Below are positions 12,699 to 47,554 of a stretch of DNA of 47,554 nt, in pieces. Origin of the DNA: a bacterium UBA2214 (GTDB lineage: Bacteria > Zhuqueibacterota > Zhuqueibacteria > Residuimicrobiales > Residuimicrobiaceae). The notes beneath the pieces were generated by a model. That model was not told the origin of the DNA. It worked only from the letters and a program-made list of their open reading frames with translations, and made no database searches. The translations under genes were made by a program, and so were the position numbers. The stretch's first letter is position 1. The number at the start of each line of letters is the position of its first letter. Where the stretch lies: the NCBI GenBank assembly GCA_002327255.1, contig DCUM01000073.1, positions 1 to 47,554 on the forward strand, in the 5' to 3' direction.

Positions 12699-12775
12699 GC
12701 GGACTCTGCAAACCGGATTTTAGTGGCAAATTATCTGGCTGTCAAGATTGCCGTGGAACGCCAGCACCGCAAACC

Positions 12776-27125: not shown

Positions 27126-27135
27126 GAGGTATGGC

Positions 27136-28017: not shown

Positions 28018-28045
28018 AGAACCCATACCGGGGCGCGACAGGGTG

Positions 28046-29586: not shown

Positions 29587-30891
29587 ATGAAAGACCATTG
29601 GCACATGGGCGCCTGGCGCGTGCGCCGAACCTCGATATGGTTCTGGAGCCTGCTCCTTTGTTTTTCCGGCACCGCGGATATGCTTTTCCGTCCGGCAGCG
29701 CCGCAATTTGATTTCAAGACGCTTTATTGTGCTGCGGCCGTTGCCCGGGAAGGGGGCGATTATTACGATCTCACCACCTTGCATGCCATGGCAGCGCATC
29801 ACGGTCTGCCGCAGCCGGTATGGCCCTACCTCTATCCGCCCTTCCTGGCCGAATTTGCAGCGCCTCTGACTTTTTGGCCCTATCAGGCCTGCGAGAAGGG
29901 ATGGATGATCGTCCATATTTTTGCGGGCGCCTTCATCGTGGCCTCGGGGGTGAAACTATCGCGCAGGCGCGATGCCGCCAAAGCGGCGACTCCCATCACC
30001 GTGCACCCGCTTCACCTGGCAGCGGTGGCCGGACTATTCCATCTGCTCGCGTTCCGTCACAATCTCTTCATGGGCCAGATCAATGTGCTGGTGCTCCTGG
30101 CGATATCGGCGAGCCTTGTTGCCTGTGCCGCAAAACGCGATGCGCTCAGCGGCATGGCGCTGTCGCTTGCCATCGTGATTAAAATGTCACCCTCCATCCT
30201 GCTGCTCTATTATGCCGTGTCAAGACGGCCGCGTATCCTGGTGGCCTGCCTGCTCTGCGCCGTCGTCCTCTTGCTGATGACGCTGCCTCTTTCCGGTCTG
30301 CAAAAATGGCTGCACTTTGGCCAGCTGCTGCCGCAACTCGCACCCGGAGAGACCGTGGCGGGACTTTTCCCGCCCGATTCCCTGTACAATTTTTCACTGG
30401 CTGGCTTTCTCAGCCGTTTGATTTCTTCCCACACCCTCGTGCGCGGGCTCGCTGCTGCGTTCGCTGCGATGCTTCTCATCGCCAGCTATCGCTGTGCGCG
30501 TCCGCACCTCCGCCAGGCTCCCGAATATCTGCTGCTGCCGCTCCTCACCCTCATGATCATCGCATCGCCGTTGAGTTATATCCACCACATCATCTATCTC
30601 TTCCCCGGCATCTGCTGGTTGGCAGGGCATACGGACAGCGCGTCAAAACGCGCGCTGATACTCTGCGGTTTGCTCATCGGCGCCGCTGCCGTGGCCGCGG
30701 TGGATTTCCCGTCGCGCTATCCCTGGTATCTCACCCGCCATGCACTGAACGGATGGAAAGCCATTCTCTTCACCTCACTGAATTTATATGCCCTGCTGCT
30801 GGTTCTCCTGTTCAGCTGTCTGCTGACCCGGATGCCCTCACAGACCCTTCCTGAAAACGCTCATAAATCAGCAGATTCTTGTACTCATTGA
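29587..30891 (+). CDS. DUF2029/GT87-like (PimE-type) polyprenyl-phosphate-sugar-dependent membrane glycosyltransferase
   Basis: 434-aa polytopic protein. YLYPPFLAEF in the first loop and IVIKMSPSILLLY resemble the GT87/DUF2029 signature. Confidence 0.55.
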   Translation: MKDHWHMGAWRVRRTSIWFWSLLLCFSGTADMLFRPAAPQFDFKTLYCAAAVAREGGDYYDLTTLHAMAAHHGLPQPVWPYLYPPFLAEFAAPLTFWPYQACEKGWMIVHIFAGAFIVASGVKLSRRRDAAKAATPITVHPLHLAAVAGLFHLLAFRHNLFMGQINVLVLLAISASLVACAAKRDALSGMALSLAIVIKMSPSILLLYYAVSRRPRILVACLLCAVVLLLMTLPLSGLQKWLHFGQLLPQLAPGETVAGLFPPDSLYNFSLAGFLSRLISSHTLVRGLAAAFAAMLLIASYRCARPHLRQAPEYLLLPLLTLMIIASPLSYIHHIIYLFPGICWLAGHTDSASKRALILCGLLIGAAAVAAVDFPSRYPWYLTRHALNGWKAILFTSLNLYALLLVLLFSCLLTRMPSQTLPENAHKSADSCTH

Positions 30892-32323
30892 GCGGGAAAG
30901 TCGCCAGCAAGCGATAGCCCCCCAAATGGTTCATGCGCTCGTAAAGGGCAAGGTGCATGGGGTGCATCGTGACATCCGCGGGCTCTTGCCGGTCATTGAG
31001 CGCGATAAAGCGCGGCCGAAAGGAAAAGACATAATCGGCATAGGCATCCAGATCCTGATTCTTCCAGAAACGGGGGATCGTCTTGTCGGTGAGACCGATG
31101 ATATCGATGATATGCGTTTCCGTCAAATACCCGATGACGCCCACTTCGTTGACCACCAGGACGTCGCCAGGGTCCGCATGGCGTCGCAGAAAGTGTGCGA
31201 TTTGCCGATGGGCACGGCTGTGCATGGCTGGATTGATGTTGGCGCCTGTTTTCACCGACTCGGCGCCGAACCAGAATGCGACCAGGTTAAAAACGATCAG
31301 CACAGTGAGCCCGGAGATCATTTTCCACGGCGCCGTGCGCACACCGGCATCGCCCTGCAGCAGCCGGCCGAGCGCTGCAAAAGCGAACAGCGCCATCAGG
31401 GGGAGCGCCGGGACGTAAAAGCGGCCGAAGCTCATCCAGTCGAAACCGCTGAACCAGATAAAAAATAACGGGCAGACGAGCACAGCCGCCAGCATGAGGT
31501 CGCATTTTCTGAAATAGTAAAGTACATACAAAATGGCAAAGAACAACAGCACTTCATTCCAGGGAAAGCTCGCCCAGGTATAGCTGATAAAAGTACGCGT
31601 GTGCCAGATCAGGTAGTCCAGGATACCCGACTGTGTCTTGATTTTTGCATAAAATGTATTGGGAAGAGGCGATTGATAATAGAGCATCCGCCACACGGTG
31701 AGAGCGCCGAGGCAGAGGATGGGGAGAGCCAGGGGGGTCAAGCGGCGCGGCCGGCGCATCCACAGAAAAAGGGCCAGCGGGGCGATGAACAAGAGGCCTT
31801 CCGGGCGGGTCATCAGCAAGGTGGCGGCGGTCACAGCCGCCAGCCAGGGTCTCTCCTTCACGATCAGGGCGGCAAAAAGAATGATCTGAAAGGCATAAAA
31901 GAGGGTTTCCATGCCGGATATGGCATAATAGACCATCCCGATGCTGGTGCTCAGATAGAGTCCGAGAAAAATAACCAGGGGTTCGGCGGCCCCAAAATGG
32001 CGGCGGAAAATATGCATCGCAAGCAGCAGCGTGGCGATGCCGCAGAACACGCCCATGATCTTGGATATCCCTTCCAGTTCCACACCGAGCGCGTGCCATG
32101 CCGCCAGAATCAGCACCCAGAGCAAATTGGAGTAGCCTTCGACGCGTTCCCCCGGATTGAAGACGAGTCCGTGACCTTCGGCCAGATGCACGGCGTAGCG
32201 GAAGGAGATGAAGGAGTCATCGAGGGTGGCATCCCGGAGCACGAGGCAGAGGATGATAAAGAGCGTCACGATGGCAACTGTGGCGCCCCCCTTTTTCAGG
32301 GAAGGAGAAATGTTCAAGGCCAT
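30812..32323 (-). CDS. GT-C fold membrane glycosyltransferase (arabinofuranosyl/mannosyl-transferase-like)
   Basis: 503 aa. The N-terminal loop motif is LDDSFISFRYAVHLAEGHGLVFNPGERVEGYSNLLW, followed by many TM helices. Confidence 0.55.
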   Translation of the reverse strand: MALNISPSLKKGGATVAIVTLFIILCLVLRDATLDDSFISFRYAVHLAEGHGLVFNPGERVEGYSNLLWVLILAAWHALGVELEGISKIMGVFCGIATLLLAMHIFRRHFGAAEPLVIFLGLYLSTSIGMVYYAISGMETLFYAFQIILFAALIVKERPWLAAVTAATLLMTRPEGLLFIAPLALFLWMRRPRRLTPLALPILCLGALTVWRMLYYQSPLPNTFYAKIKTQSGILDYLIWHTRTFISYTWASFPWNEVLLFFAILYVLYYFRKCDLMLAAVLVCPLFFIWFSGFDWMSFGRFYVPALPLMALFAFAALGRLLQGDAGVRTAPWKMISGLTVLIVFNLVAFWFGAESVKTGANINPAMHSRAHRQIAHFLRRHADPGDVLVVNEVGVIGYLTETHIIDIIGLTDKTIPRFWKNQDLDAYADYVFSFRPRFIALNDRQEPADVTMHPMHLALYERMNHLGGYRLLATFPLNEYKNLLIYERFQEGSVRASGSADS

Positions 32324-32329
32324 ATCGAT

Positions 32330-33595
32330 CTACTCAACGTTCTTCAGGATGAATTGTCTGATTTCATGCCGGGTGTTTCTCAGATCGCTGAAAGGCCAGC
32401 GCCGGCGGTCGTTGATATCGTATTTCAGAGTGGACTGATAAACAGGTTGGGTGAAACAGGCCTGTATCTGTCCGTTGATATGGAGCTGGCCGAGCAGATA
32501 GAGGAGCGCCATGAGTGCCAGCCGCGGGCGCCACGTCGTCGCGGCCTGCCAGAGTCGCACAAAAAGGGTCACCAGGAGCGCCGCCACGGCAAAAGCCGGC
32601 AGGCCGAGCAAGCGGGGTGAAGCATCGAGCATGTTGGGCAGCGTGGCGATCACCCACCATGCCAGCAGGAAGCGAATCACTCCGTAATCCTGTAGAAGGA
32701 TGTGCTTTTTATCCCGGACACTGCGGAGGAAGAGAATGACCACCGCAGCCAGGAGGATGGCGGTGAGCCAGCCTGGCATCAGGAAGAGCGGGTATATCGC
32801 CGTGAGCAGCGCCTCGAAGTAGCGGATCGCCATGCCTGCCCAGGCGATGAGGGGATGGCTGGCGACCCAGGCGTTTTCGGAAAAACCACGCTCCCCGACC
32901 GTACGCGCCCCGAGCACACTCAGGCGCCACAAAAAATAGCCACTCCAGAGCAGATAATGTGGCACCAGAAGCCGCCACATCCGTTCGCTCCGGACGGATT
33001 TGCCCGTCAGAAGCAACGAGGCTGTGAGTATCAGCGGCAGACTCAGGCTGATCTCTTTGCACAGCCAGGCCATGAGGGCCAATGCGCATGAAGCGATCAG
33101 CCAGGCACTCCGCTTTGTCTGCTCTTGCTGTGCGTGCATAAAAGCGAGCCAGGAAGCCATCATCAGCAGCAAGGCCCAAAGATCGATTTGCGCAGAAATC
33201 CAGGTTACCACAACCGCATTGCCGGGCAGAATCAACCACAGCAGCACCGCGGTCAATGCCTGCACCTGAGAAAATTCGAGACGCCGCAAAATGTGAAAAT
33301 AAAGCATCATCAGGAGGGTGGCCAGGAGCAGGTTAACGCCATGATAGAGCCAGGTCGTGTTGGAAAAGAGGGCATATTGCAGGGCAAAATGGTAATTGAT
33401 CAGGGGGCGGTAAAATCGCTCGGACCATGGTTGTGAAAAACCGGCTGACAACTCGGCGGAAGAGTAGTCGCGGATCAGCAGGGCATCATCGTAGCTCCAG
33501 CCAAAGGAGAGCGTGCCGCCGTAAAGTGCGGCCACCAGCAGAGGGATAACCCAGGCCGGGTGACGCGTGATCGTTGCGCTGTTCAGCCACTGCAT
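32330..33595 (-). CDS. GT-C fold membrane protein, PMT/TMTC (DUF1736)-like, without TPR tail
   Basis: About 421 aa from the ATG at 33595 (AGGTG upstream). The first-loop motif is FGWSYDDALLIRD ... FYRPLINYHFALQYALF ... YHGVNLLL. Confidence 0.5.
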   Translation of the reverse strand: MQWLNSATITRHPAWVIPLLVAALYGGTLSFGWSYDDALLIRDYSSAELSAGFSQPWSERFYRPLINYHFALQYALFSNTTWLYHGVNLLLATLLMMLYFHILRRLEFSQVQALTAVLLWLILPGNAVVVTWISAQIDLWALLLMMASWLAFMHAQQEQTKRSAWLIASCALALMAWLCKEISLSLPLILTASLLLTGKSVRSERMWRLLVPHYLLWSGYFLWRLSVLGARTVGERGFSENAWVASHPLIAWAGMAIRYFEALLTAIYPLFLMPGWLTAILLAAVVILFLRSVRDKKHILLQDYGVIRFLLAWWVIATLPNMLDASPRLLGLPAFAVAALLVTLFVRLWQAATTWRPRLALMALLYLLGQLHINGQIQACFTQPVYQSTLKYDINDRRRWPFSDLRNTRHEIRQFILKNVE

Positions 33596-33606
33596 TTTTG
33601 CACCTG

Positions 33607-34668
33607 TCAAAAAGCGAATGAGCCTGAAATCCGATGGGAATTATCCAGTTTATCCGCCACAAACGCATAGTCCACTGCAAAACCGAGAAAGCGCAGGCCG
33701 GCGCCGGCGGTCATATGATCCTGGTGGTAACCGCCGCGCAAACTGATGGCGTTGAAAAAATCGAGTTCAGCGCCGGCAAAGTTACCCTCTGTGTTCCAAA
33801 AGGCTCTGTCATAGGCGATGGTAATGCGGGTACGCCAGAACGCCAGCAGGTGTGAGGCGGCGACGCCCGTCACCAGGCCGCGCTCTATTTCATCTTTGTG
33901 CCGGGAATCGGTGTTCCAGCTCAATTGTGTCCTGGACAGATCGCGGATGACGGCGCCGGCGCCGAACCAGGTGCGCGGATCGGGCTCATCTTCCCAGTTC
34001 GGCATGACGCGTACCAGCACGCCGGCATCGATGCCCTGACCACTTCCGGCATACTGATCCAGTTTCTGGTGTATATACTTTCCGGTGAAGCCAACGGATA
34101 TTTCGGTTGGCAGGTAGACATCCGAGAAACCGCCGGCCATTTCCAGATCCAGGATGATGCTGCGCCGGAAAGAGAGCAGAATGGCGTCCTCCTTGTCGGA
34201 GAAATAGCCGAGGGCTTCTCCGCTGGAGCGGTGCTGACCGAGGATGAGGCGGTCGTAGCGGCTGCCCTCGAGCGCGCCATAGCGCGGGATGTCATCGACG
34301 CCGAGACGAATCCAGTTGAGGCTGATACTGGTGGAATAGTCAAAGGCGAGATGCGCACTCATGCTGTTATACTGTGCCAATCCGGAGAAGAGGGGTACAT
34401 GTTCGAGCTGCACAGCGATGCGGCTGACGCCCGCCCAACCGGCCGGATTCCAATAGGTTGCGCTGGCATCATTGGCAAGCGCCACATAAGCGCCGCCCAT
34501 GGCCATGGGACGCGCGCCAACACCGATGCGCAGGAAATCGGCGGCGTAATCACCCGGTGTCGCCGGGGGGGCCGCCATGAGAAGCAGAAGAAACACTGCT
34601 GCAACTGCCTTGATTGTTATCATCACAAACCTCATCTCCATTCCGTTTGCCCTTTCGAAATCGGTCAT
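33607..34668 (-). CDS. porV: T9SS outer-membrane shuttle protein, PorV/PorQ family
   Basis: A signal peptide is followed by the family motif DFLRIGVGARPMAMGGAYVALANDASATYWNPAG. The composition is beta-barrel-like and the protein ends in F. Its ATGA overlap with porU suggests translational coupling. Confidence 0.8.
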   Translation of the reverse strand: MTDFERANGMEMRFVMITIKAVAAVFLLLLMAAPPATPGDYAADFLRIGVGARPMAMGGAYVALANDASATYWNPAGWAGVSRIAVQLEHVPLFSGLAQYNSMSAHLAFDYSTSISLNWIRLGVDDIPRYGALEGSRYDRLILGQHRSSGEALGYFSDKEDAILLSFRRSIILDLEMAGGFSDVYLPTEISVGFTGKYIHQKLDQYAGSGQGIDAGVLVRVMPNWEDEPDPRTWFGAGAVIRDLSRTQLSWNTDSRHKDEIERGLVTGVAASHLLAFWRTRITIAYDRAFWNTEGNFAGAELDFFNAISLRGGYHQDHMTAGAGLRFLGFAVDYAFVADKLDNSHRISGSFAF

Positions 34669-37600
34669 TGCAGCCTGGCCATCTTTTCAATGCGTTCGAA
34701 CTTTTTCTCCCCGTTCCGCGCCGTAAATCTCAGGTAATAAACACCGTTGGCAACCTGGTTGCCATCTTCGTCACTGCCATCCCAATCCCACTCGTGATAG
34801 CCCGTCACACCCTGCATCGTAACCCGGCGTACCAACCGGCCGGATACCGTATAAATCATCATTTCGACTTCAGTGGCCGTTTCGGTCAACAGGAAGGCAA
34901 TGGTCGTCTCGTGTTGAAACGGATTGGGATGGTTTGCCAGACTGGCCAGACTGAAGGTACCTTCAACCCGGAAGAGCGTTTGCAGGCTGGCGGGATTGCC
35001 GTTAATGTCCCTGATTTCAATCATCAATTCATGTTCTCCGGCTGCGAGCTGCGGGGAATAGGTGAGTGTCATGACATGGCGCGTATCCGCATCCTGGAAG
35101 AGCTTATAGTGCTCTGCCGGCACTTCGACGCCGTCCAACTGCAGGCGCAGACCGGAATCCGCCACATCAAAGCCGCTCTGATCTTCGCATGAGACCGTGA
35201 AAACCGGGCGAGAAGAGACAACGTCTCCGGGGGCATAATTCTGTCCGCTGATACTGACACGGATGACAGGCCCATCGCTATCCTGGCTGGCCAGCAACGA
35301 GAAGCCTTTCATGGCGGACGGCAAATAAGCGCGCAGGGTGCCTTGGGCCGCATCAATGGTCGAGGGCAGTCCGTGCCAGGTATTGGAGGCCTCATTCCAG
35401 GCGTAAATGCGCAGCGTGTTATTCTTCAGCAGCTCTGCAATCTGGGTATCGGAGGCGTCAACCACTGCGACAATTGGAATCGCCTTGCTCAATACCAGTG
35501 TGGAATCGGATAATTTATAGCGGTACAGCAGCGGTTTGGTGGCGTTCTTCAGTTTGACCGGTGTCAGGCCGGAGAGTTCCGCGGCCCGCTTCTGTTCCGC
35601 CTCCCATTTCTGGCTCCAGCTCAAGGACACCGTTTGATTGATCGACCTGGGGGGAATTTCGAGGTAGCCGCTTGCGTCCGGCAAATAGAGCGCTCCTCCT
35701 GTGCCGGCCGATTCCGTCACAAGCCGGGATACGACCAGGGTGATATTGTTACCCTCGTTACTCTCCGTCACCTGCCGATCAACGTCCACCTGAAACCACA
35801 GCTTGGTTTCGCCGGCGGTTGGATCGGGCCATTCGATCGTCATGGTGGTATCCCGTTTGCCGGCGATCGTTGTAATGACCATTTTGTGGCCGATGGCTTG
35901 ATAACTTGATGCGTTGACGCCCTCGGTCACCGTCACAGCAAAAACCCCACTGGCTTTGTCACCGGTATTCCTGATGATAAAAGAGATTTTGGTGGGCTGC
36001 CCCCCCACCTTAACCGACTGAGGCGTAATCGACAGATCGGGACGGTATCCGATCTGGATCGTCGTGATATCGCCAACCAGTTGTTCGTTGGTGCCCGTAG
36101 TGACCAGTGTCTGGTATTGTACCGTTGCGCCTTCAATCTGCTGAACGGGTTCGGTCGTTCTCCAGACTCCGCTGGCCTGCTTGACGAGATTATAGCGCTG
36201 CCAGTTTTTGCGGTCCGGGGTGATGTTCATCTGTACCAGCTTTACGCCTCCCATTTCACCCAATGATGACTCGTCGACAGTGATATTGAAATAGAGATAA
36301 TCATTGTGGGTTGGTCTGGCGGGATCCATGGTCACCAAAATCGCAGCGATCGGATTGATCGATATTTCAGCCACATTGGCGGCATCGTTTTGGTCATCGC
36401 GGGCAAAGACGCGGATATACGCCTTGCCCTGCTGGCTTTTCCAGGCTTTGATGTTCTCTTCGCTGATGGTGTAGAGATCGCAGGAATAGGCGCCACCCTG
36501 CACGACGGCTTCCTTGCTGACCAGCAACGAATCGCGGTCGTTAGACAAGGTGACCGTGACCGTCCCCTGTTGGACATGAGCGGCCTTTCCCGTGACGCGG
36601 ATGGACTCTCCCGGCCGATAGGCAGATTTGCCGGGCTGAACCGTGACATCCGCAGCGGATAAATAATAGGGCAATGCGGGATCGCCGAGGAGAATGAAAT
36701 GGCGCACCTGATCCCAATAGCCATTGGTATTGGCAATGAGCAAAATTTTGCCCAATGTCGTGATTTCGCCGACGCGGCGGCGGTTTTCTTTATACATCGC
36801 ATCAAACAGGGCAATATTGAGGTAGTAATCACCATCGGCCGTCGCCCGCCCGGCAGAACCAAAGTGCGCAACGGCGCCCTTGTCCACCGCCAGCACCAGT
36901 TCTTCGCCCAGGGAATCCATTTCGGGATTATCAAAATGGCCGACAAAACAGGTCAGACTGAAAACCAGGGGATATCTGTTTTTATTGTGCAGCCGTGCAA
37001 TATCTTCAATCTGGAACAATTCGTTGTCAAAGTAAACACCCCCACCGCCATGGCCGATAAAATTGAGCAGCGTTTGTCCACGATTGATCATATCCGCAAG
37101 ATCCTGCGTCGCGCCAAAATAGGGTGAGGTCGGTTGTGTCGTCAGACGGTTCACCCAAACCCGTTTCGGCGTATACTTGTTGATCAATTCCTCGGCATCA
37201 TTGATGAAGCGGGAGCCGTCCGCGTAAACCATGGCGATATTGCGGCGCCAGCTGTCAATGATGGAGTGATCCTGATAGTTGAGCGTCTTGTTGACCATAT
37301 TTTCAGCCTGCTGCACCGTGCTGACGGGAAAGCGCCCGACGTAAAGATCGGGCAGAATATCGTTACCGCTCACCGCTACAAAAGCATTGTCTGAAGAGGT
37401 CATACCCCACGAACCCGTGAAAACCATCAAGGCGGGAATGAAGGTGGGCATGAAAGTTTTCTTGCCGGTTCCCTTGACGATACTGCGTTTGTTCATATAA
37501 TGGGTTGTATCGCCAAAAAGGAGAATATAGAGAGGCGCCGGTTTGGACCAATGATGATAGGCATAGGCAATGAAATCGCGAATGGCATTGGGATCATAAA

Positions 37601-39521: not shown

Positions 39522-39588
39522 GCCGTCTCCTTTCATTCGCCTCTGATCGTCCCGTCGTTCACAGCTGCTGTATTTCACGAAACACCCA

Positions 39589-39849
39589 TTATTTTTCAGT
39601 TGGTCGTTGTATGTCATTCAATAAATCCATGCTCAAATCCGCCAGCCGCCTGGCATAATAGCTGACCCGCTCGAGAAGATGAACTTCTTCGGGCTGGAGA
39701 CGCGACGCGACTTCATCCTGATAGATACTGAGATAGCCCAGCAAGCCCTGAACCGTGGATCGCAGTTCGTGTCCAAGACGGCGCTGTTGTGCCGCGCGTG
39801 AAATTTCATGCTCCGCCGCATGATTATTTTCTTGCCTCACTTCCGTCAC
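39589..39849 (-). CDS. DHp (HisKA)-only mini-protein with H-box and no ATPase domain
   Basis: 86 aa from the GTG at 39849 (GGAG 9 nt upstream, 5 nt after the preceding stop). The H-box is RRLGHELRSTVQGLLGYLSIY. The frame has no ATG start. Confidence 0.4.
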   Translation of the reverse strand: MTEVRQENNHAAEHEISRAAQQRRLGHELRSTVQGLLGYLSIYQDEVASRLQPEEVHLLERVSYYARRLADLSMDLLNDIQRPTEK

Positions 39850-39853
39850 GTCG

Positions 39854-41170: not shown

Positions 41171-42173
41171 GTTCCTTCGTCCCAAGATAAAGGGTGTTGT
41201 GGTTTCCGGATGCGATTTGGAACGAGGTGATGGTGACAGCCGGCAGATTATCGGTGATGTTCGTCCAGGAGAGGCCGGCGTCATCGCTGCGATGGATCCT
41301 CGTTGAAGTACAGGCATAGAGCCGGTCCGGCCGCCGTGAATCGGTGCGAATGGCTACGGCGTTTTTCCAGGCGATATTTTCGAACTTGCGTTGCCAACTC
41401 ACGCCCTCATTCAGGGAGAGATAAAAATAACCACTTTCACTCGCGGCATACAATCGACTTGAATCGGAACCACCGAAAGCGAACTGCCGCGGCGCATCAA
41501 AATACCCCCCACTGCCCTGAACACCTTCGTTCATATAAAACCATCTGGCGCCGTCATCGGTGGTGCGGGCAAACCCCGTGTACAACATGCCGAGGAGCAG
41601 CGTCGTGGGGTGCCGCGGCATTGATGTGACCGAGAGGATCAGACGGCTGTTTTTAAACATGCTGCTCCAGTTGACTTCCGCCTTGCTTTTGCGATAGATG
41701 CCCGTCGCCGTTGCCAGCCAGATGACATCGTCTTTCTGTCCGACCATATGCACGCCATTGACCAGCGTGTTTACCACTTCTCCACCGAGACTCGCCCAAC
41801 TGCCGCCGCCGTCTTCGCTGCGGCTCAATCCCCGGCCCCAGCTGCCGCAATACAGCCGTTGCGGGTTATCGATGCAAATGGCAATCGATTTGATATCGCG
41901 ATTGAGCAAGCCATCTTCCGCGGGGTACCATTGTTTGCCGCCATCGGTTGTTTTTAAAAGTCCGTCAAAGAGGCCCACATAAATAGTGGTAGCTGTGGCG
42001 GGATGCATCTCGATGCATTGCACCTTGCGCATCAGCATCGCTTCGGCCAGATTGACCCAGCCTGTCTCTTTCTCGGGAGCATTGGTTTTGGGTTCATCGC
42101 ATGCGAGAAGAGCCGCGCAGAGCAGCAGGCCGGTCACCATGCGATAGGTATTCCTGTTCATTGTGGTAGGCAT
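41139..42173 (-). CDS. BNR/Asp-box beta-propeller lipoprotein
   Basis: It has the lipobox LLAC. Five Asp-boxes are present: TTDGGKQW, SEDGGGSW, TTDDGARW, SLNEGVSW and SDDAGLSW. Confidence 0.7.
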   Translation of the reverse strand: MPTTMNRNTYRMVTGLLLCAALLACDEPKTNAPEKETGWVNLAEAMLMRKVQCIEMHPATATTIYVGLFDGLLKTTDGGKQWYPAEDGLLNRDIKSIAICIDNPQRLYCGSWGRGLSRSEDGGGSWASLGGEVVNTLVNGVHMVGQKDDVIWLATATGIYRKSKAEVNWSSMFKNSRLILSVTSMPRHPTTLLLGMLYTGFARTTDDGARWFYMNEGVQGSGGYFDAPRQFAFGGSDSSRLYAASESGYFYLSLNEGVSWQRKFENIAWKNAVAIRTDSRRPDRLYACTSTRIHRSDDAGLSWTNITDNLPAVTITSFQIASGNHNTLYLGTKEHGLFKCVESK

Positions 42174-42180
42174 AATTCTC

Positions 42181-43476
42181 TCACATCAGACTGGGTTGCA
42201 GATTCTTGTCAGCGAGTTGCAGCTGTTGCAGCGAGCGGGTAATTTTTACATCGATTTCAGCTTCCACAGGCGGCTGCAGAGAACGATTGAAAAGACGCGC
42301 ATAAGCCGCCAGCAGGGGTGTATGGGTGCAGGCCCAGGCCAATTCATGGACGACCCTGCGATGGCCGTAGGCGCCCATGCGGTGACGCAGCGCTGCATCC
42401 TCGAGGAGATGGTCTATTTTTTGCGCGAACTGGCTGATATCATTGGGCCGTGCGTATAGCGCAGCGCGTCGCGCCGAATTGTGGATTTCTTTCAAATCGA
42501 ATGCGACGATGGGTTTGGAGAAGACCATATATTCGAGGATCTTGTTCATCGTGGAATTATCCGCCCATTCGGAGTAGGGATCGGGATCGACGCAGACATC
42601 GGCTGTTGACAGATAGCGCGAAACATCCGCATCCGGGAGGCGCCCGGTGAATTCAACCTTGTCGGTGAGTTTTAACCGTTGATTCAGAGCCTGCAAATCC
42701 GGCACAGCCGGTCCGCCACCAATCAGCACAAAACGGACGTCCTCACGGCCCAGTTGGTGGCGCAGATAGTGAGCGGCGCGCAAAAGGTAGTCGACGCCAT
42801 CCTGTGGGCACATCTCTCCCAGGTAGCAGACGAGAAACTCCGCCCCCCGCTTTAACGCCGGCTCAGCCGGCACGGGCGCCAACTGTTTGAACTCGGGACC
42901 GGTGCGAACCACATAGATATCATCACGCTTCTTATGCCCGCGGCTTATGGCGATATCCCGGTACGATTCATTGGTCACCAGCACGACATCGGCCGTTTTC
43001 ATGGTGAGCTTTTCCAACAGGATCAAAAGCCGGTAAAGGACACCGCGGCGATGGGGAAATTTGGCCAAAAACATCTCCGGCGACAGGTCGTGATGATCAA
43101 AGATGAACTTTTTGCCGAAGACTTTGTATAGCCATCCCAGCAAAAAATAGGTGTCCGGCGGATTGCAGGCCTGGATGACATCGAATCCTTCGCGCCGCAG
43201 TACCCGGAGGGACAAACAGGCGGTCGCAAACCACGCATATAAAAACTCGGCGAAATAAGACAAAAATCCTTTGGCCTCAAAGGGTATATCATAGCGGTAG
43301 ATGGCAATATTTTCAACAAGCTGGTATTTTTCAGGATGTTCTTTAGACGTTGGACAAATAACGCTCACTTTGTAACCATGGTCCCGCAAGGTTCGCGATT
43401 CCAGCCATACTCTGCGATCCAGGGGGACAGGAAGATTCTGCACGATGATCAATATTTTACCAGCAAATCCCTTCAT
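42181..43476 (-). CDS. Glycosyltransferase family 4 (GT-B fold)
   Basis: 431 aa. The N-terminus is ILIIVQNLPVPLDRRVW, and the C-terminal EX7E-type motif is SEWADNSTMNKILEYM. Confidence 0.8.
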   Translation of the reverse strand: MKGFAGKILIIVQNLPVPLDRRVWLESRTLRDHGYKVSVICPTSKEHPEKYQLVENIAIYRYDIPFEAKGFLSYFAEFLYAWFATACLSLRVLRREGFDVIQACNPPDTYFLLGWLYKVFGKKFIFDHHDLSPEMFLAKFPHRRGVLYRLLILLEKLTMKTADVVLVTNESYRDIAISRGHKKRDDIYVVRTGPEFKQLAPVPAEPALKRGAEFLVCYLGEMCPQDGVDYLLRAAHYLRHQLGREDVRFVLIGGGPAVPDLQALNQRLKLTDKVEFTGRLPDADVSRYLSTADVCVDPDPYSEWADNSTMNKILEYMVFSKPIVAFDLKEIHNSARRAALYARPNDISQFAQKIDHLLEDAALRHRMGAYGHRRVVHELAWACTHTPLLAAYARLFNRSLQPPVEAEIDVKITRSLQQLQLADKNLQPSLM

Positions 43477-44779
43477 AATTGACCTCTTTTGCGTTCACAT
43501 GTTCGACGTTCTTGAGACCGGAAAGATCGATTATTTTGTGTCCGTTGCGCAAATCACCCAAGACCGCTTCATGTTCTTCCGCGGAGTTGCCGATGACCAC
43601 GATATCGGAATGTCGCAGGAGTTCCTCGAGGGAGCCGCACATGAGTTTGGCGATATGCGGGACCTCGCGTTCGATATATTCTTTATTGGCGCCCATCAAG
43701 CGCGCCAGAGAGACATTGCGGTCGTATATTCGCACGTCATAGCCCTTGCCCAGCAGTTGTTCGACCAGTGTGACCACGGGACTTTCGCGCAGGTCATCGG
43801 TACCATGCTTGAAGGAGAGTCCGAGCACGCCGATGCGCTTGCGGCCATAGGCTTTGACCATCTGCAGGGCGTAGCGAATATGTTCCGCATTGCTGTGCAT
43901 GGCCGCCTCGAGAAGCGGCACATTCACGTCCGATTGCCTGGCGTAATGCGCCAGCGCCCGTAAATCTTTGGGCAGACAGGAGCCGCCGAAGGCGAAGCCG
44001 GGTTTCAAATAGTACGGCGAAAGATTCAGTTTCGTATCCTTGACGAAGACATTCATCACCGCTCTGGCGTCCACACGAAAATTTTTGCACAGCCGTCCGA
44101 TCTCGTTGGCAAACGTCACCTTTACGGCATGCCAGGCGTTATCGGCGTATTTTATCATCGCTGCCTCACCAGGCTGCAGCCTGAACAGCGGGGCGGGCAG
44201 CCCGGCATAAAGAAGAGATAATAATTCCGCCGAGGGCTTGTCAAAGACACCAATGACGGTTTTGGGCGGATGGTAAAAATCATACAGGGAAGTCCCTTCG
44301 CGCAGGAACTCCGGATTCAGGGCGAATCCAAAGCCCTGCCCCAGTTTCCTGCCGCTGGAAGATTCCAGGCAGGGAATGGCGACCTCTTCCGCAACCCCGG
44401 GCAATACGGTACTGCGAAGCGCGATGGTCACACGGCGATCGATTTTACGCAGAACGGCACCGATCTCGCTGCAGACACGCTCCACATAACCCAAATGCAG
44501 ACTCCCGTTGCCGTTGCTGGGCGTGCCCACGCAGATAAAAATCACTTCACTCTCCCTGACTGCGGCAACCGTATCGGTTGTCGCCCTCAGCCGCGCCGCG
44601 TGCTTTTGCTGTGAAATCAACTCCTCCAGCCCATTTTCCACGATGGGCGATTGCCCCTTATTGATCAAATCCACTTTGTGTTCACTGATGTCCACACCGA
44701 TGACATCATGACCCATTTCCGCAAAACAGGCAGCGGAGACGCACCCCACATAACCCAACCCAAATACGCTAATCTTCAT
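43457..44779 (-). CDS. Nucleotide-sugar 6-dehydrogenase (GDP-mannose/UDP-sugar 6-dehydrogenase family, AlgD-like N-terminus)
   Basis: 440 aa. The Rossmann N-terminus is MKISVFGLGYVGCVSAACFAEMGHDVIGVD, and the catalytic Cys motif is FGGSCLPKDLRAL. Confidence 0.9.
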   Translation of the reverse strand: MKISVFGLGYVGCVSAACFAEMGHDVIGVDISEHKVDLINKGQSPIVENGLEELISQQKHAARLRATTDTVAAVRESEVIFICVGTPSNGNGSLHLGYVERVCSEIGAVLRKIDRRVTIALRSTVLPGVAEEVAIPCLESSSGRKLGQGFGFALNPEFLREGTSLYDFYHPPKTVIGVFDKPSAELLSLLYAGLPAPLFRLQPGEAAMIKYADNAWHAVKVTFANEIGRLCKNFRVDARAVMNVFVKDTKLNLSPYYLKPGFAFGGSCLPKDLRALAHYARQSDVNVPLLEAAMHSNAEHIRYALQMVKAYGRKRIGVLGLSFKHGTDDLRESPVVTLVEQLLGKGYDVRIYDRNVSLARLMGANKEYIEREVPHIAKLMCGSLEELLRHSDIVVIGNSAEEHEAVLGDLRNGHKIIDLSGLKNVEHVNAKEVNYEGICW

Positions 44780-44816
44780 CGAGCGTCACCTCCTGCGAAC
44801 AATTCTTTCATCATGC

Positions 44817-45767
44817 TCATGAATGCACCATCGTCTTGTGATGGCTCGAGCGCAAATAATATCCATAAACCATCCTGAACAATCTATTTGACACAGACAA
44901 CAGCAACGGCCGGCTCTGCCGTCCCAGAAAGGTCAAAAAGGGCACCGACCACCTGTTCACCAGGCTGACCTTGAGCCGGTAGCGCAAGCGTTCCTTGACC
45001 GGAAGACGGTGATCATAGAGTCCAAATTTCCCGGCAATTTCCCGGCTCATATCCGGGCGTTGCCGCTGCCAGATGGCCACCGCTTCGCCATAGAGAGAGC
45101 CCTTTTGAAAATAGGTGCGTATGGTAATCGGATGATGATGGGTAGCCACCACGCCGGCATGATAGTAAAAACGCATGCCGGATTCAGCGAGTCGATAGGC
45201 CAGTTCCAGATCCTCCGCCGCTTGCAGACTCTCATTAAAACCACCGGCGCGTTTGACCGCGGCCGTCCGCAGGGAGGTATTCGCCGTCCGGTATCGGCGG
45301 AAATCGATCTCCACATCATCGGCTTCCAGGTCCCTGAACTCCAGTTCATTCCAGCGCACCTGATCAGCATGCATCAATTCCTGCGACATGACGATTTTTC
45401 CCATATGACACACCAGCGCATCCGAGTTGCGGTGTAATTGCAGATGATGACGAACCAGGGAAGTGCCGGGTATGGTGTCGGCGTCCAGAAAAAGCACCAA
45501 ATCGCTATGGGCATGCGCGAGGCCTTTGTTGCGGGCGCCGGCCGCCCCCACTCCCGGAGCGTCGAGAATCTGCAGCTCAAAGGGGGTGTTCTCCACGCTG
45601 TGCAGATACGTTTGCGTCGCCGCGGCGGAGCCGTCATTCACCATGATGACTTTAAAACAGCCGGGGGCACTGTCCTGCAAGATCAGTCCGTTCAATACGC
45701 GGCGCAGCTCGGGGAGACGGTCACGCACCGGAATGATGACGCACAATGCCGGATGGGCGCGGCTCAT
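44817..45767 (-). CDS. Glycosyltransferase family 2
   Basis: 316 aa from the ATG at 45767, in an ATGA overlap with the wzx stop. Motifs are CVIIPVRDR, VIMVNDGS and FLDADT (DxD). Confidence 0.85.
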   Translation of the reverse strand: MSRAHPALCVIIPVRDRLPELRRVLNGLILQDSAPGCFKVIMVNDGSAAATQTYLHSVENTPFELQILDAPGVGAAGARNKGLAHAHSDLVLFLDADTIPGTSLVRHHLQLHRNSDALVCHMGKIVMSQELMHADQVRWNELEFRDLEADDVEIDFRRYRTANTSLRTAAVKRAGGFNESLQAAEDLELAYRLAESGMRFYYHAGVVATHHHPITIRTYFQKGSLYGEAVAIWQRQRPDMSREIAGKFGLYDHRLPVKERLRYRLKVSLVNRWSVPFLTFLGRQSRPLLLSVSNRLFRMVYGYYLRSSHHKTMVHS

Positions 45768-47203
45768 GCGACCCCCTTTTCTTCGCCTCGCAGACAGACG
45801 GTGAGCAAGCGGCGTAAATCTCTGCGATCCAGTGCCTGTGTGAACCACAGTGCAGCTCCATACACCAGACCCGACGCGAGGATGGCCAAAGCAGCGTCGA
45901 TTGGACTCAGCAGCCAAAGGCAGAGCGCCATCAATCCGGCAGCGACACCAATCCATAGTGTATGCCTATCCGGCACCAGGCGATATAAATGATGATGCAC
46001 GGAGAGGTATTCAACAGCTGCAAAGACGACAGCGGCCAGAGTCATTGCCACAGCAGCTCCGGTCGCCGACCGTTCGGGAACCAGGAGCGCGATGCCAGCC
46101 AATAACGCCATGGTGGCGGCGGCGTTGGCCCGGAGGTCGAGCCGCTGCTGGCGATGACTGATCAGCGTGAATGCCAGGGTTGGGATGATGCTGTAGGGAA
46201 TCAATATCCAGGCCAGCCAGCGCAATACCGGCGCTGCGGGCGCCATGGCCGAACCATAAAGCCAAAGAATGATGGTCTCCGCGCTCAAAGCGAAAATAAC
46301 GGCCAGAGCGGTGAAAGCCATCAGCTGATAACGCAAGGCCCGTTTTAAAAGCGCCTGATAGGTGACAGGGTCTTCCTGCGCCAGTCGCGACGCCACCGGC
46401 AGCAGCGCCTGTGCGAAGGCGAGAACGAGCATGATGGCATAACTGATTAACTTGTACGCAGCGCTGAAATAACCGGCTGTTTCCTCGCCGTGCAGACTCG
46501 TCAACAGGATGATGGTGATGGACCAGAAAGCGCTGTTGAACAACGCGATGAGAAAAAAAGAGGGCGTCTGTTTGAGCAGCGCGACGAGGAGAGCGCGTTC
46601 AAAACGCAGGACCGGTGCACCCGCGCGGCGGCAGGCCAGTATAAATGACACAGCGGCGGATATGATTTTGCTCGCAGCGATGGTCAGGATCAAGGCGCGC
46701 AGTCCGTGACCGGTCAGCAAACACGTGAATCCACCTGCGATCAGCACTGCGTTCTCGGTCAGAGTGGCCAGGCTGATATAGCGTATCTCCTCCACCGCCG
46801 TCAACATCACCTTGCTCCAGTAGCCAAAACTGGCCGGGATGAGCACGAGCACCATGACCTGAGCACTCCATCTGGACAGGGGGCCGGGCGACAACCAGTG
46901 GACGCAGAGAAGCATCAAGGCGGCGGTGATGGCGGTGGCCGCGAGACCGATAACGAGGGCATGCGCAAAGTATATTCCAGCACGCGCACGGTTCTGGGCG
47001 GCATCCCGGGTGATGGGGGATCCGAGTCCCAGCGTCGAGATCAACTCAAAAAAGCTGTACAGCGACAGGGTGAAAGCGATGGCGCCAAAGACGCCGGCAC
47101 CCAAATAACGCGCGACCAGGATCCAAAACACGGCAGATCCCAATCGCGACACCATATCCGCGCCGGTTCTCCAGAGTGTATTTCTTATCAAGGAGTGCAG
47201 CAT
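45764..47203 (-). CDS. wzx: Wzx-type oligosaccharide/polysaccharide flippase (MOP superfamily)
   Basis: 479 aa with about 12-14 TM helices. The N-terminus RNTLWRTGADMVSRLGSAVFWILVARYLG is typical of polysaccharide biosynthesis flippases. Confidence 0.8.
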   Translation of the reverse strand: MLHSLIRNTLWRTGADMVSRLGSAVFWILVARYLGAGVFGAIAFTLSLYSFFELISTLGLGSPITRDAAQNRARAGIYFAHALVIGLAATAITAALMLLCVHWLSPGPLSRWSAQVMVLVLIPASFGYWSKVMLTAVEEIRYISLATLTENAVLIAGGFTCLLTGHGLRALILTIAASKIISAAVSFILACRRAGAPVLRFERALLVALLKQTPSFFLIALFNSAFWSITIILLTSLHGEETAGYFSAAYKLISYAIMLVLAFAQALLPVASRLAQEDPVTYQALLKRALRYQLMAFTALAVIFALSAETIILWLYGSAMAPAAPVLRWLAWILIPYSIIPTLAFTLISHRQQRLDLRANAAATMALLAGIALLVPERSATGAAVAMTLAAVVFAAVEYLSVHHHLYRLVPDRHTLWIGVAAGLMALCLWLLSPIDAALAILASGLVYGAALWFTQALDRRDLRRLLTVCLRGEEKGVA

Positions 47204-47226: not shown

Positions 47227-47554
47227 TCAGGGCCGTTGAGCCACTACCAGCAAGCCATTGCCTTCTTCATTTTTGCGATAAAAATCCACCAACATCAAAA
47301 TCATCACAAAAGGATGGATGAGGATGAGATAAACAGGAAAAATGACTTTAAAAAATCGGCTGAATTGAACCATCGTCACCACATCGTACGCCAGCCGGCC
47401 CCAGGGGCCATAGCTGATTTCAACGCCGGTGATATCAAATCCCGTTTGCGCCAATTTTTGGAGCAATGCCGGGGGCTGATCATAACGAACGTGCCCATGC
47501 GGCAGAGCCTCCCCAAGGGCGCGGGTCATGACAGCGATCTTGTTCTCCAAACAC
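47227..47554 (-). CDS. Partial CDS (C-terminal part only), possibly a methyltransferase with a C-terminal membrane hairpin
   Basis: The frame is open to the window edge. The listed start is only a TTG, so the gene very likely continues upstream of the window. A hydrophobic tail (VIFPVYLILIHPFVMILMLV) is present. Confidence 0.35.
   Translation of the reverse strand, partial: CLENKIAVMTRALGEALPHGHVRYDQPPALLQKLAQTGFDITGVEISYGPWGRLAYDVVTMVQFSRFFKVIFPVYLILIHPFVMILMLVDFYRKNEEGNGLLVVAQRP

Follow-up and report, generated by a model that had tools for sequence, protein, structure and literature searches.

Gene content of the locus

The window analysed here is a 47,554-nt stretch of DNA from the uncultured KSB1-type bacterium UBA2214 (GCA_002327255.1). 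Using an open reading frame list, Pfam and NCBIfam scans, and gene calls on the source contig (ERZ27315072:k141_1148089), we found that twelve minus-strand genes lie between 47.5 kb and 30.8 kb, either overlapping or separated by 71 nt or less (Table 1). The observation made in the initial annotation, a co-directional glycan-biosynthesis string containing porU and porV, therefore holds in the gene order it gave, as do all of its gene identities, including the DHp mini-ORF and the lipoprotein. Two ATGA overlaps, wzx/GT2 and porU/porV, were read directly from the sequence. Several of the longest open reading frames overstate gene length, namely those of wzx, GT2, GT-C1, and PorU; the called lengths are given in the table. 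A sigma-70 promoter and terminator scan, which is weak evidence for this lineage, returned no intergenic terminator on the minus strand inside the string.

Table 1. Predicted genes of the string and its downstream neighbors, with the distance to the next gene of the string (negative values are overlaps).
Position	Strand	Predicted product	Length (aa)	Distance to next gene (nt)
47227..47554	-	SAM-dependent methyltransferase, 3' part (full gene continues to 48033 on the contig)	268 (full gene)	71
45764..47155	-	Wzx-type flippase (MOP family)	463	-4
44817..45767	-	GT2 glycosyltransferase	316	37
43457..44779	-	Nucleotide-sugar 6-dehydrogenase (UGDH)		-20
42181..43476	-	GT4 (GT-B fold) glycosyltransferase	431	7
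41139..42173	-	BNR/Asp-box beta-propeller lipoprotein	344	-32
39854..41170	-	Polytopic membrane protein, GT-C-like (GT-C1)	438	4
39589..39849	-	Cytoplasmic mini-protein, DHp-like	86	67
34665..39521	-	PorU-like C25 cysteine peptidase (clade A)	1618	-4
33607..34668	-	PorV/PorQ-family outer-membrane protein (clade A)	353	11
32330..33595	-	Polytopic membrane protein, weakly GT-C-like (GT-C2)	421	6
30812..32323	-	Polytopic membrane protein, GT-C-like (GT-C3)	503	
29587..30891	+	GT87-family (GT-C) mannosyltransferase-like; overlaps the 3' end of GT-C3 by 80 nt		
28046..29545	-	PMT_2/GT-C-like membrane protein	499	

The cytoplasmic and flippase genes were assigned by profile scores. The methyltransferase gave Methyltransf_23/25/31 Pfam hits as a full gene on the source contig, whereas the in-window fragment alone gave no Pfam hit. 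The flippase scored 74.6 bits against Polysacc_synt (cut-off 28.2) and has about 12 hydrophobic segments. The GT2 enzyme scored 63.2 bits against Glycos_transf_2 and lacks a hydrophobic segment; its best NCBIfam hit is EpsD-like, at 158 bits and below cut-off. The dehydrogenase scored 413 bits against TIGR03026 (cut-off 189.8), with the AglM and TuaD UDP-Glc dehydrogenase models at 322 and 241 bits and the TviB/WbpA-type model at only 71 bits. It is thus most like UDP-glucose 6-dehydrogenase, rather than a WbpA-type enzyme, and would make a uronic acid. The GT4 enzyme matched Glyco_trans_1_4 (90.7 bits) and Glyco_transf_4 (48.1 bits), with the PEP-CTERM/XrtA-system GT 'stp3' as its best NCBIfam hit (84 bits, below cut-off).

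The lipoprotein has an LLAC lipobox with a Cys25 that is invariant in 16 homologues and scored 34.6 bits against Sortilin-Vps10; a profile search against the PDB matched GH74 (5e-29), Ycf48 (1.5e-17), a BT4663-type sensor (6e-14), and PorZ (3e-6), meaning it resembles many propellers far more than it resembles PorZ. The 86-aa protein resembles a free-standing histidine-kinase DHp domain, with the H-box 'LGHELRSTVQGLLGYL' and an invariant His27. An alignment of 13 homologues showed invariant H27, R30, and LLGY; its best PDB profile hits are histidine-kinase DHp domains at a marginal E of 0.008, and no Pfam or NCBIfam hit was returned.

The GT-C assignments rest on borderline PMT_2 scores and a DD/DE motif. 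GT-C1 scored 24.0 bits, just under the 26.1 cut-off, has at least 7 hydrophobic segments with Asp45-Glu46 after the first (invariant in 12 homologues), and gave no PDB hit by profile. GT-C2 scored 25.9 bits against the same cut-off, carries an invariant Asp36-Asp37, was not significantly similar to GT-C1 by hhalign, and was found only in the closest relatives. GT-C3, with an invariant Asp35-Asp36, gave weak NCBIfam hits to arabinofuranosyltransferase and to a cell-surface glycopolymer family, and hhalign to GT-C1 gave a probability of 67% (E 5e-5). The GT87 gene on the opposite strand (84.8 bits, cut-off 25) is present in the same position only in one other locus (L003). The fourth PMT_2-like gene (31.5 bits, cut-off 26.1) belongs to the same conserved neighborhood and directly follows GT-C3 in relatives that lack the GT87 gene (loci L002, L004, and L005).

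The 1618-aa C25 protein is PorU-like. It has a signal peptide, a Propeptide_C25 region, a C25 domain with a His/Cys dyad, CARDB, and a T9SS type-A C-terminal domain, with scores of 299.8 bits for Peptidase_C25, 51.7 bits for FlgD_ig, and 25.5 bits for Por_Secre_tail (cut-off 23). Its nearest solved structure is Porphyromonas gingivalis PorU (6ZA2, E 8e-32), with gingipains at about 1e-8, and the dyad aligns to that of PorU and is invariant in 12 homologues. The protein nevertheless falls 17 bits short of the NCBIfam PorU cut-off (403.4 against 420), and the PorU model also matches Chloroflexota and Poribacteria proteins without a PorV neighbor, so being PorU-like does not guarantee sortase function. 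Its neighbor passes the PorV_fam threshold (95.2 bits, cut-off 90), and a profile of 20 homologues hits PorV 6H3I at E 5.6e-7.

Extent and conservation of the cluster

The co-directional run does not start at 47.5 kb but continues about 13 kb further on the same contig, so that it starts outside the window, giving a unit of 21 genes over 29.6 kb. Ahead of the methyltransferase, in order, are genes for an fn3 protein, a 357-aa protein with a T9SS type-A tail, a glycosidase-like protein, Wza, Wzz/GNVR (a chain-length determinant), an HTH protein, an ExeA-like ATPase, a tyrosine kinase, and Wzy_C. The 357-aa protein, a candidate cargo, passes TIGR04183 (32.6, cut-off 23) and is 42% identical to its counterpart in the JAFGJN01 cluster, whose PorU-A is 38% identical to that of the window; the whole 30-kb order is kept between lineages at this distance. 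The order fn3, cargo, Wza, GNVR, HTH, AAA, kinase, Wzy, wzx, GT2, UGDH recurs in 4-5 metagenome contigs. A sigma-54-type element, TGGCAY-N5-(A/C)TGC(T/C), lies about 90-135 nt upstream of fn3 in 5 of 5 loci with upstream DNA, and an NtrC-type activator gene lies next to it.

The initial annotation had proposed synteny across relatives as a test, and the outcome was positive. The core of UGDH, GT4, BNR lipoprotein, GT-C, DHp mini-protein, PorU, and PorV recurs in 16 other loci with PorU identities of 33-70%, the individual genes being present as follows: PorV 16/16, BNR 16/16, GT4 15/16, UGDH 14/16, GT-C1 14/16, and DHp 14/16. Both the head of the cluster and its PorU core are conserved across lineages whose PorU proteins are only 33-40% identical. 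Wza orthologues lie on the same contigs as PorU-A, judged by matching sizes of 1003560, 292419, 89459, 36160, and 31897 bp. The closest locus belongs to a KSB1 MAG, and the lineage is not Bacteroidia. As independent support for a functional link, porU-porV are followed by Wza/Wzc-type genes in Zixibacteria and in 9 of 12 Cloacimonadota loci, and by a small SLBB protein in 4 of 4 Calditrichia loci.

Two PorU/PorV lineages

The pair in the window forms its own clade (A), distinct from a second clade (B) to which it is 25% (PorU) and about 32% (PorV) identical. A neighbor-joining tree without support values, the identities, and adjacency to the SprA translocon separate the two, with clade B lying beside SprA in relatives. 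Both clades occur in one MAG, CAYSNA01, whose two contigs have matching composition (GC 48.3% and 49.5%, tetranucleotide r 0.95). This is the only MAG in which co-occurrence was shown, in a genome scan that could detect clade B only through a single 9-residue motif. In a clade-A genome, the MAG that carries clade-A locus L022, SprA and another tail-bearing protein are on contig JAPDPN010000083. The alternative that the C25 protein is ordinary T9SS cargo, with a separate PorU elsewhere, is thus borne out only by half: a second lineage exists, and the present pair may be an extra, dedicated one rather than "the" T9SS sortase, yet the protein is not ordinary cargo, being PorU-like rather than gingipain-like and keeping its own PorV partner. 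On present evidence, the window's own organism is about as likely to have a clade-B pair as to lack one.

A putative polysaccharide-linked attachment branch

The interpretation offered in the initial annotation, a self-contained system in which one locus makes a dedicated anchor glycan and ligates it to T9SS cargo, is partly supported. porU-porV do sit inside one tightly packed glycan cluster, and the export genes, the conserved tail-bearing protein, and the sigma-54-type promoter extend the evidence. "Self-contained" fails, however, as the 30 kb encodes no translocon, no initiating phosphoglycosyltransferase, and no aminotransferase, FemAB/VimA-like, or asparagine-synthase-like enzyme that could install the free amine needed for a PorU-type transpeptidation.

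We propose, with moderate confidence, that the locus encodes a polysaccharide-linked branch of the type IX secretion attachment machinery. What the analysis establishes is the 21-gene co-directional cluster and its order, the conservation of its head and core, the catalytic dyad and T9SS tail of the PorU-like protein, and the separation of clade A from the SprA-adjacent clade B. The mechanism, by contrast, is inferred from sequence alone in uncultured organisms, and co-transcription is inferred from spacing only. In this view, cytoplasmic enzymes would build a uronic-acid-containing repeat unit on a lipid carrier, Wzx would flip it, Wzy would polymerize it, GT-C enzymes would decorate it in the periplasm, and Wza and the Wzc-like proteins would export it. 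Transcription would start at the sigma-54-type promoter ahead of the fn3 gene. The tail-bearing protein, and PorU itself, would cross the outer membrane through a SprA translocon encoded elsewhere, with PorV-A carrying the cargo to PorU-A. PorU-A would then remove the tail and, like P. gingivalis PorU with A-LPS, join the new C-terminus to the polymer of the locus, while the BNR propeller lipoprotein may present the glycan. The mechanism of PorU, PorV, PorZ, and A-LPS is published (PMC10202324, PMC7468200); we found no published description of a distinct PorU/PorV pair kept within a polysaccharide-export cluster.

A doubtful but surviving alternative, closest to the initial annotation, is that PorU-A and PorV-A are the organism's only T9SS sortase and shuttle, serving all tail-bearing cargo, with the surrounding genes making the general cell-surface anchor glycan, an A-LPS analogue. 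Of about 20 genomes with clade A, only one showed a clade-B pair in the scan, although its reliance on one exact 9-residue motif makes absence uninformative. A SprA contig (L090-L092) matches window-type relatives in composition (tetranucleotide r 0.97-0.98) and lacks the clade-B pair at the position it holds after SprA in loci L070 and L038, and PorU-A scores as high on the PorU model as clade B does, or higher. Conversely, CAYSNA01 has both pairs, and clades A and B are only 25% identical while SprA of A-bearing and B-only genomes is 53-65% identical, meaning the split predates these genomes. The conserved cargo gene at the head of the cluster also suggests a dedicated role.

Slightly less likely is a co-regulated matrix program without covalent anchoring, in which PorU-A only removes the sorting tail and releases or matures the secreted proteins of the locus, which then associate non-covalently with the exported polysaccharide. 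Here the genes would be clustered for co-expression, not because the glycan is the sortase's substrate. The lack of an amine-installing enzyme in the locus, the single sigma-54-type promoter heading the whole cluster, and the release of many T9SS cargo proteins after PorU cleavage in known systems (PMC10202324) favor this reading. Against it, a canonical pair could do plain tail removal, yet a separate PorU/PorV lineage is kept inside glycan clusters across deep divergence, and Wza/Wzc-type genes also follow porU-porV in other phyla.

Protein glycosylation in place of an anchor polymer is very unlikely. The four to five GT-C-like genes surrounding porU-porV, whose best Pfam family is the protein-mannosyltransferase-related PMT_2, could glycosylate the secreted proteins, or PorU and PorV themselves, in the periplasm, resembling protein O-mannosylation or the Bacteroidota O-glycosylation of T9SS cargo. 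However, the PMT_2 scores are borderline, the family also contains lipid A and glycan transferases, only GT-C1 belongs to the widely conserved core, and Wzx, Wzy, Wza, a chain-length determinant, and a tyrosine kinase point to a polymer. That the pair sits in the locus by historical accident has nothing specific in its favor beyond the plasticity of polysaccharide loci, which often collect unrelated genes, and is the least likely reading, disfavored by the conserved, tightly packed core and 30-kb order, the 33-70% PorU identity range arguing against recent transfer of one island among closely related genomes.

Together, these findings indicate that an uncultured KSB1-type bacterium keeps a distinct copy of the type IX secretion "sortase" PorU, here PorU-like, and its shuttle PorV inside a conserved 30-kb polysaccharide-export gene cluster that also encodes a secreted protein with the matching sorting tail. 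This arrangement suggests, as an inference from sequence, that surface proteins may be fastened to a secreted sugar polymer.

Gene content and extent of the cluster

To confirm or refute the initial annotation, we combined ORF, Pfam, and NCBIfam searches with the gene calls of the source contig, of which the window covers bases 467-48020 (ENA ERZ27315072:k141_1148089; 100,100 bp). The described gene string is correct. All on the minus strand, it reads methyltransferase (cut by the window end), wzx, GT2, nucleotide-sugar 6-dehydrogenase (UGDH), GT4, BNR lipoprotein, GT-C-like protein (GT-C1), 86-aa DHp-like protein, PorU-like, PorV-like, and two more polytopic GT-C-like proteins, with spacings of 71, -4, 37, -20, 7, -32, 4, 67, -4, 11, and 6 nt, and both 4-nt overlaps read ATGA. 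The lipoprotein assignment holds, as the lipobox is LLAC and Cys25 is invariant in 16 homologues. The DHp assignment also holds: 'LGHELRSTVQGLLGYL' is an H-box and His27 is invariant in 13 homologues, although database support is marginal, with no Pfam hit and a histidine-kinase DHp at E 0.008 as the best PDB profile hit. A 62-aa ATG ORF was considered as the mini-ORF and rejected, because tblastn and the contig's gene calls show that the conserved gene is the 86-aa GTG ORF in another frame. Two minus-strand ORFs were likewise dismissed as shadows of plus-strand genes. A scan for sigma-70 promoters and terminators gave nothing decisive.

Coordinates of features in the window and in related loci (L numbers denote individual loci in our comparison set)
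Feature	Sequence	Position	Strand
SecA gene	window	13387-19572	minus
Shadow ORFs of DUF6599 and aldo-keto-reductase genes (plus strand)	window	27118-28185 and 26016-27149	minus
GT87 gene	window	29587-30891	plus
GT-C3 gene	window	30812-32323	minus
86-aa DHp-like gene (GTG start)	window	39589-39849	minus
Rejected 62-aa ATG ORF	window	39633-39821	
Sigma-54-type element	L093 (source contig; about 60.5 kb in window-equivalent coordinates)	3814-3829	
CapK-like gene	L001/L014 (compact version of the locus)	3433-4800	
Tandem array of the 357-aa protein family	L103 (metagenome contig)	4289-14576	

The remainder of the window holds housekeeping genes (Era, ProRS, HprK, a Xer-type recombinase, SecA, NusB, a class IV aminotransferase, and RecJ), and it is therefore chromosomal. 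The SecA gene encodes 2061 aa, about twice the usual length, with all SecA domains present but split by two large insertions at roughly aa 293-979 and aa 1458-1814. The first insertion has no relative among solved structures, so no match to solved intein structures was seen. The GT87 gene is inverted relative to the cluster and its 3' end overlaps the 3' end of GT-C3 by 80 nt. It is present only in the window and in locus L003, whereas relatives have a PMT_2 gene directly after GT-C3, so this is a recent insertion into the cluster's tail.

The unit is larger than initially annotated, as the co-directional string on the same contig starts about 13 kb beyond the window. The upstream genes are, in order, an fn3/DUF4998 protein (425 aa), a 357-aa protein with a T9SS type-A tail (TIGR04183, 32.6 against 23), a 1193-aa glycosidase-like protein, Wza, Wzz/GNVR, a 70-aa HTH protein, an ExeA-like AAA ATPase, a tyrosine-kinase-like ATPase, Wzy_C, and the methyltransferase, after which the genes of the window follow. 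Together they make 21 genes in 29.6 kb, with every gap 87 nt or less. A tail HMM search for cargo found none in the window plus 10 kb; the candidate cargo lies further upstream. The family of the 357-aa protein can also expand outside the PorU-A cluster, as at least five paralogues lie in tandem on one metagenome contig (L103).

A histidine kinase, an NtrC-type sigma-54 activator, and a single-domain receiver lie just upstream of the cluster. Next to them on the source contig, ahead of the fn3 gene, is a conserved sigma-54-type -24/-12 element (TGGCAY-N5-(A/C)TGC(T/C)T(A/T)AG). The pattern TGGCAY-N5-(A/C)TGC(T/C), with GG-N10-GC kept, lies about 90-135 nt before the fn3 start in 5 of 5 loci with upstream DNA (L093, L094, L095, L098, and L099), while the strict pattern occurs at 0.014 per kb in all loci. 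A free-standing DHp-like protein of 75-95 aa, with an invariant H-box histidine and no ATPase domain, lies between GT-C1 and porU in 14 of 16 glycan-linked loci (L002-L012, L014, L018, and L019), and it could be a phosphotransfer or kinase-modulating mini-protein tied to these two-component genes.

The PorU/PorV pair and its lineages

We next examined the membership of the porU-porV pair, hereafter PorU-A and PorV-A. The 1618-aa PorU-like protein carries Propeptide_C25, Peptidase_C25 (299.8 bits), CARDB, and a C-terminal sorting domain (FlgD_ig, 51.7 against 27; Por_Secre_tail TIGR04183, 25.5 against 23), and the porV-family gene overlaps its stop codon. Residues H824 and C858 are invariant in 12 homologues and align with the GHGG His and TC Cys of P. 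gingivalis PorU (6ZA2), in which C690 is the published catalytic residue (PMC5562754). In a phmmer search of the PDB, PorU 6ZA2 is the best solved relative (E 7.9e-32), far ahead of the gingipains at about 1e-8. The protein nevertheless scores 403.4 bits on the NCBIfam PorU model (NF033707), 17 below the equivalog cut-off of 420. Other clades score 238-424, including Chloroflexota proteins with no PorV partner, so the model is not discriminating outside Bacteroidota.

The neighboring protein passes the PorV/PorQ family cut-off (NF033709, 95.2 against 90), and a profile of 20 homologues finds PorV 6H3I at E 5.6e-7. Its scores on the PorV equivalog (NF033710, 30.3 bits against 250) and on PorQ (42.5 bits) are far below the cut-offs. 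The PorU2 (NF052324) and PorV2 (NF052325) models, which NCBIfam describes as a putative second type IX sorting system, embody the same concept of a second PorU/PorV-like pair, and PorV2 is the best-scoring model for the PorV-like protein. However, the scores are 259.9 against 450 and 107.8 against 325, and PorU-A scores higher on the canonical PorU model. The same holds for clade-B (see below) and Cloacimonadota proteins, so these models do not describe this clade. None of the non-Bacteroidota homologues that we scored reaches the PorV, PorQ, PorU2, or PorV2 equivalog cut-offs, and these scores together with those for PorU do not separate the clades defined below or name a canonical pair. Single-sequence AlphaFold models of PorV-A and of the BNR protein, computed without alignments, had mean pLDDT values of only 31.6 and 33.7 and were discarded.

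To test whether the arrangement is conserved, as had been proposed beforehand, we scanned one genome per species, which gave 554 PorU relatives, of which the best 80 were kept. The closest related locus (70% PorU identity, same gene order) comes from a MAG labeled candidate division KSB1, where taxon labels here and below are those written in the MAG records. Using tblastn with the window's proteins, the core UGDH-GT4-BNR-GT-C1-DHp-PorU-PorV was found in 16 other loci with PorU identity of 33-70% (PorV 16/16, BNR 16/16, GT4 15/16, UGDH 14/16, GT-C1 14/16, and DHp 14/16). GT-C2, GT-C3, and the PMT_2 gene are kept only in the nearest relatives. Wza orthologues sit on the same contigs as PorU-A, judged from contigs of identical size, including contigs of only 36 and 32 kb. 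In JAFGJN01 (PorU-A 38% identical), the whole order recurs from fn3 and the tail-bearing protein to GT4, and continues into BNR-DHp-PorU-PorV, while four to five metagenome contigs keep the head of the cluster.

A neighbor-joining tree of the PorU core, without support values, and pairwise identities separate three lineages. Clade A contains the window pair and the other glycan-linked pairs; clade B contains other KSB1-labeled MAGs, Calditrichia, Latescibacteria, and Cloacimonadota; and clade C contains two KSB1-type proteins and Chloroflexota proteins, none with a PorV neighbor. PorU identity is 33-64% within A, 40-55% within B (KSB1-type members), and 25% between A and B, and PorV mirrors this (45-67%, 53-76%, and 31-33%), so the pair diverged as a unit. 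In loci L038 and L070, clade B follows SprA-M28-PrmA-DUF4390. MAG CAYSNA01 holds both clades on contigs of matching composition (GC 48.3% and 49.5%, tetranucleotide r 0.95).

Comparing the sizes of contigs among 120 hits to the SprA translocon with those of the clade-A contigs gave no match on the same contig, and SprA was not found in the 67 kb seen of the window's own contig. Four look-ups gave one hit in a clade-A MAG (JAPDPN01), where SprA and another tail-bearing protein lie on a different contig from the pair. SprA was also found on a contig that matches window-type relatives in composition, where it is not followed by a clade-B pair. As the genome scan detects clade B only through one exact motif, absence of clade B elsewhere means little.

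Other PorU-like proteins have different partners. Chloroflexota (Anaerolineae) encode proteins that score 288 bits on the PorU model and have no PorV neighbor (loci L044, L047, L053, L056, L058, L059, L062, L065-L069, L073, L074, and L077-L079). The one that was checked (990 aa; L086, the contig carrying protein P0013) shows no T9SS-tail Pfam hit and sits in a PqqD, radical-SAM, ScmC, C25, cohesin neighborhood, which looks like peptide maturation rather than T9SS. Poribacteria (L024-L026, L029-L031, L033-L035, L040, and L052) have full-length PorU-like proteins (394 bits in L025), with no PorV-family gene detected by tblastn within 10 kb. Clade-B porU-porV (L027, L038, L041, L042, L045, L051, L070, and L071; also L048, L050, L054-L061, and L080-L082) are followed by conserved genes of unknown function, one a lipoprotein of about 250-274 aa and, in KSB1-type and Calditrichia loci, also a protein of about 374-401 aa with no Pfam or NCBIfam hit. 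These may be unrecognized attachment-complex parts, but the two that were compared (u274 and d398) show no similarity to PorV or to the BNR propeller, which leaves no evidence that they are PorQ or PorZ equivalents.

The porU-porV genes are followed by polysaccharide-export-type genes in several other phyla. In Zixibacteria SM23_81 the following genes are an epimerase, Wza, Wzz/GNVR, an ExeA-like ATPase, and a kinase; in 9 of 12 Cloacimonadota loci, an unknown lipoprotein, a small SLBB protein, and a Wzc-like protein; and in 4 of 4 Calditrichia loci, an unknown protein and an SLBB protein. A link between the attachment pair and polysaccharide-export-type genes is therefore general in these phyla.

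Comparison with characterized sorting and export systems

The P. gingivalis T9SS attachment complex (PorU sortase, PorV shuttle, PorQ, and PorZ), with the A-LPS anchor of the Wbp/Vim pathway, shares with this locus a PorU-type C25 peptidase with the catalytic His/Cys and its own T9SS tail, an adjacent porV-family gene, a uronic-acid-forming dehydrogenase, a Wzx flippase and a Wzy_C protein nearby, and a beta-propeller protein. In P. gingivalis, the glycan genes are scattered and the anchor is an LPS delivered by Lpt and PorZ, whereas here everything is in one cluster, with Wza/Wzc-type export genes typical of capsule or EPS. No PorQ is present, the phylum is different (KSB1-type), and the pair belongs to a lineage separate from the translocon-linked pair of related genomes. 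The propeller is a single-domain lipoprotein without a tail, while PorZ is built from two seven-bladed propellers (PMC5121618). No Wbp or Vim enzymes are present: the dehydrogenase fits UDP-glucose types, with the TviB/WbpA-type model giving 71 bits against 592, and no aminotransferase, AsnB-like, or FemAB-like gene lies in the cluster. A CapK-like adenylate-forming enzyme immediately precedes UGDH only in L001/L014, the compact version of the locus (PorU-A 38% identical). An enzyme of this kind could amidate a uronic acid, which might supply the nucleophile that the window's own cluster lacks.

The PEP-CTERM/exosortase (XrtA) system likewise comprises a protein-sorting enzyme embedded in an EPS locus, target proteins with a C-terminal sorting signal, and an adjacent sigma-54-dependent activator, as with PrsR. 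The export gene, chain-length determinant, ATPase, and GT4 of the present locus have PEP-CTERM-system models as their best NCBIfam hits (pepcterm_export, pepcterm_ChnLen, pepcterm_ATPase, and stp3), and pepcterm_TyrKin also hits the tyrosine kinase, though not as its best match. All of these hits are below the curated cut-offs (106 against 180, 174 against 279, 245 against 324.5, and 88.5 against 231 for export, chain length, ATPase, and tyrosine kinase). No exosortase was found among the called genes and Pfam hits over the 33 kb from the regulators to PMT_2. Moreover, the sorting signal is a T9SS beta-sandwich tail rather than PEP-CTERM, and the predicted sorting enzyme is a surface-exposed C25 peptidase rather than an inner-membrane exosortase.

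With Wzx/Wzy-dependent assembly of capsule or EPS (group 1 capsule type), the cluster shares Wzx (Polysacc_synt), Wzy_C, Wza (Poly_export + SLBB), Wzz/GNVR, and a separate tyrosine-kinase-like ATPase, all co-directional, with the kinase scoring just under the cut-off of the tyrosine-kinase family eps_fam (105.8 against 108.05). No initiating phosphoglycosyltransferase of the WbaP or WecA type was found, as no called gene of the cluster gave a Bac_transf or Glycos_transf_4 hit. The cluster also holds four to five GT-C-like membrane proteins, a PorU/PorV pair, and a T9SS cargo gene (a candidate, from its tail), none of which belong to classical capsule loci. A GT-C1 profile found no hit in the PDB, and GT-C1 against GT-C2 by hhalign was not significant.

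Proposed function and implications

Given these results, the protein families, the conserved gene order, the tails on PorU-A and on the head-of-cluster protein, the promoter motif, and the existence of two PorU/PorV lineages are established by the sequence analysis, whereas every function is inferred. By analogy with the P. gingivalis model (PMC10202324, PMC7468200), PorV-A would shuttle tail-bearing cargo from SprA to PorU-A, which would remove the tail and join the cargo to the polymer that the locus builds and exports. The BNR propeller as a PorZ-like glycan presenter is only a suggestion, as its profile hits PorZ at 3e-6 but GH74 enzymes at 5e-29 and Ycf48 at 1.5e-17. Against the strict analogy, neither an initiating transferase nor an amine-forming enzyme lies in the cluster, the dehydrogenase is of the UDP-glucose type, and the GT2 has no membrane segment, which leaves the donor for the GT-C enzymes unexplained. 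The interpretation in the initial annotation, that one locus makes a dedicated anchor glycan and ligates it to T9SS cargo, is partly supported.

A bolder reading, which remains doubtful but compatible with the data, is that PorU-A and PorV-A form an EPS-directed protein-sorting system, a T9SS counterpart of PEP-CTERM/exosortase. Specific tail-bearing proteins, starting with the conserved 357-aa protein, would be covalently joined to a Wza/Wzc-exported uronic-acid polysaccharide, giving a protein-polysaccharide conjugate matrix. In this view, the pairing of porU-porV with Wza/Wzc-type genes in Zixibacteria, Cloacimonadota, and Calditrichia would mean that anchoring to an exported polysaccharide, rather than to LPS, is the common state of T9SS attachment outside Bacteroidota. 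Veith et al. speculated on a link between the linking-sugar pathway and PEP-CTERM EPS loci (PMC7468200). Full-text searches found no description of T9SS in KSB1 or the candidate phyla, of PorU/PorV paralogues, or of porU-porV inside glycan or EPS loci, and no paper on PorU2 or PorV2.

Covalent anchoring of T9SS cargo has been worked out in only a few oral Bacteroidota, where the anchor is A-LPS and its genes are scattered. The present locus places a PorU/PorV pair, a candidate cargo, the glycan-building enzymes, and a capsule-type exporter behind one predicted promoter, and it is conserved over deep divergence in uncultured phyla. It thereby offers a compact, testable model for how the sortase finds its glycan. 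For annotation, PorU hits outside Bacteroidota fall into at least three lineages with different genomic partners, which matters for annotating secretion systems in MAGs. Together, these findings point to two further ideas, namely that T9SS cargo may be fastened to exported polysaccharide, and that the PEP-CTERM/exosortase idea of proteins sorted onto EPS, itself still unproven, may have a T9SS analogue.
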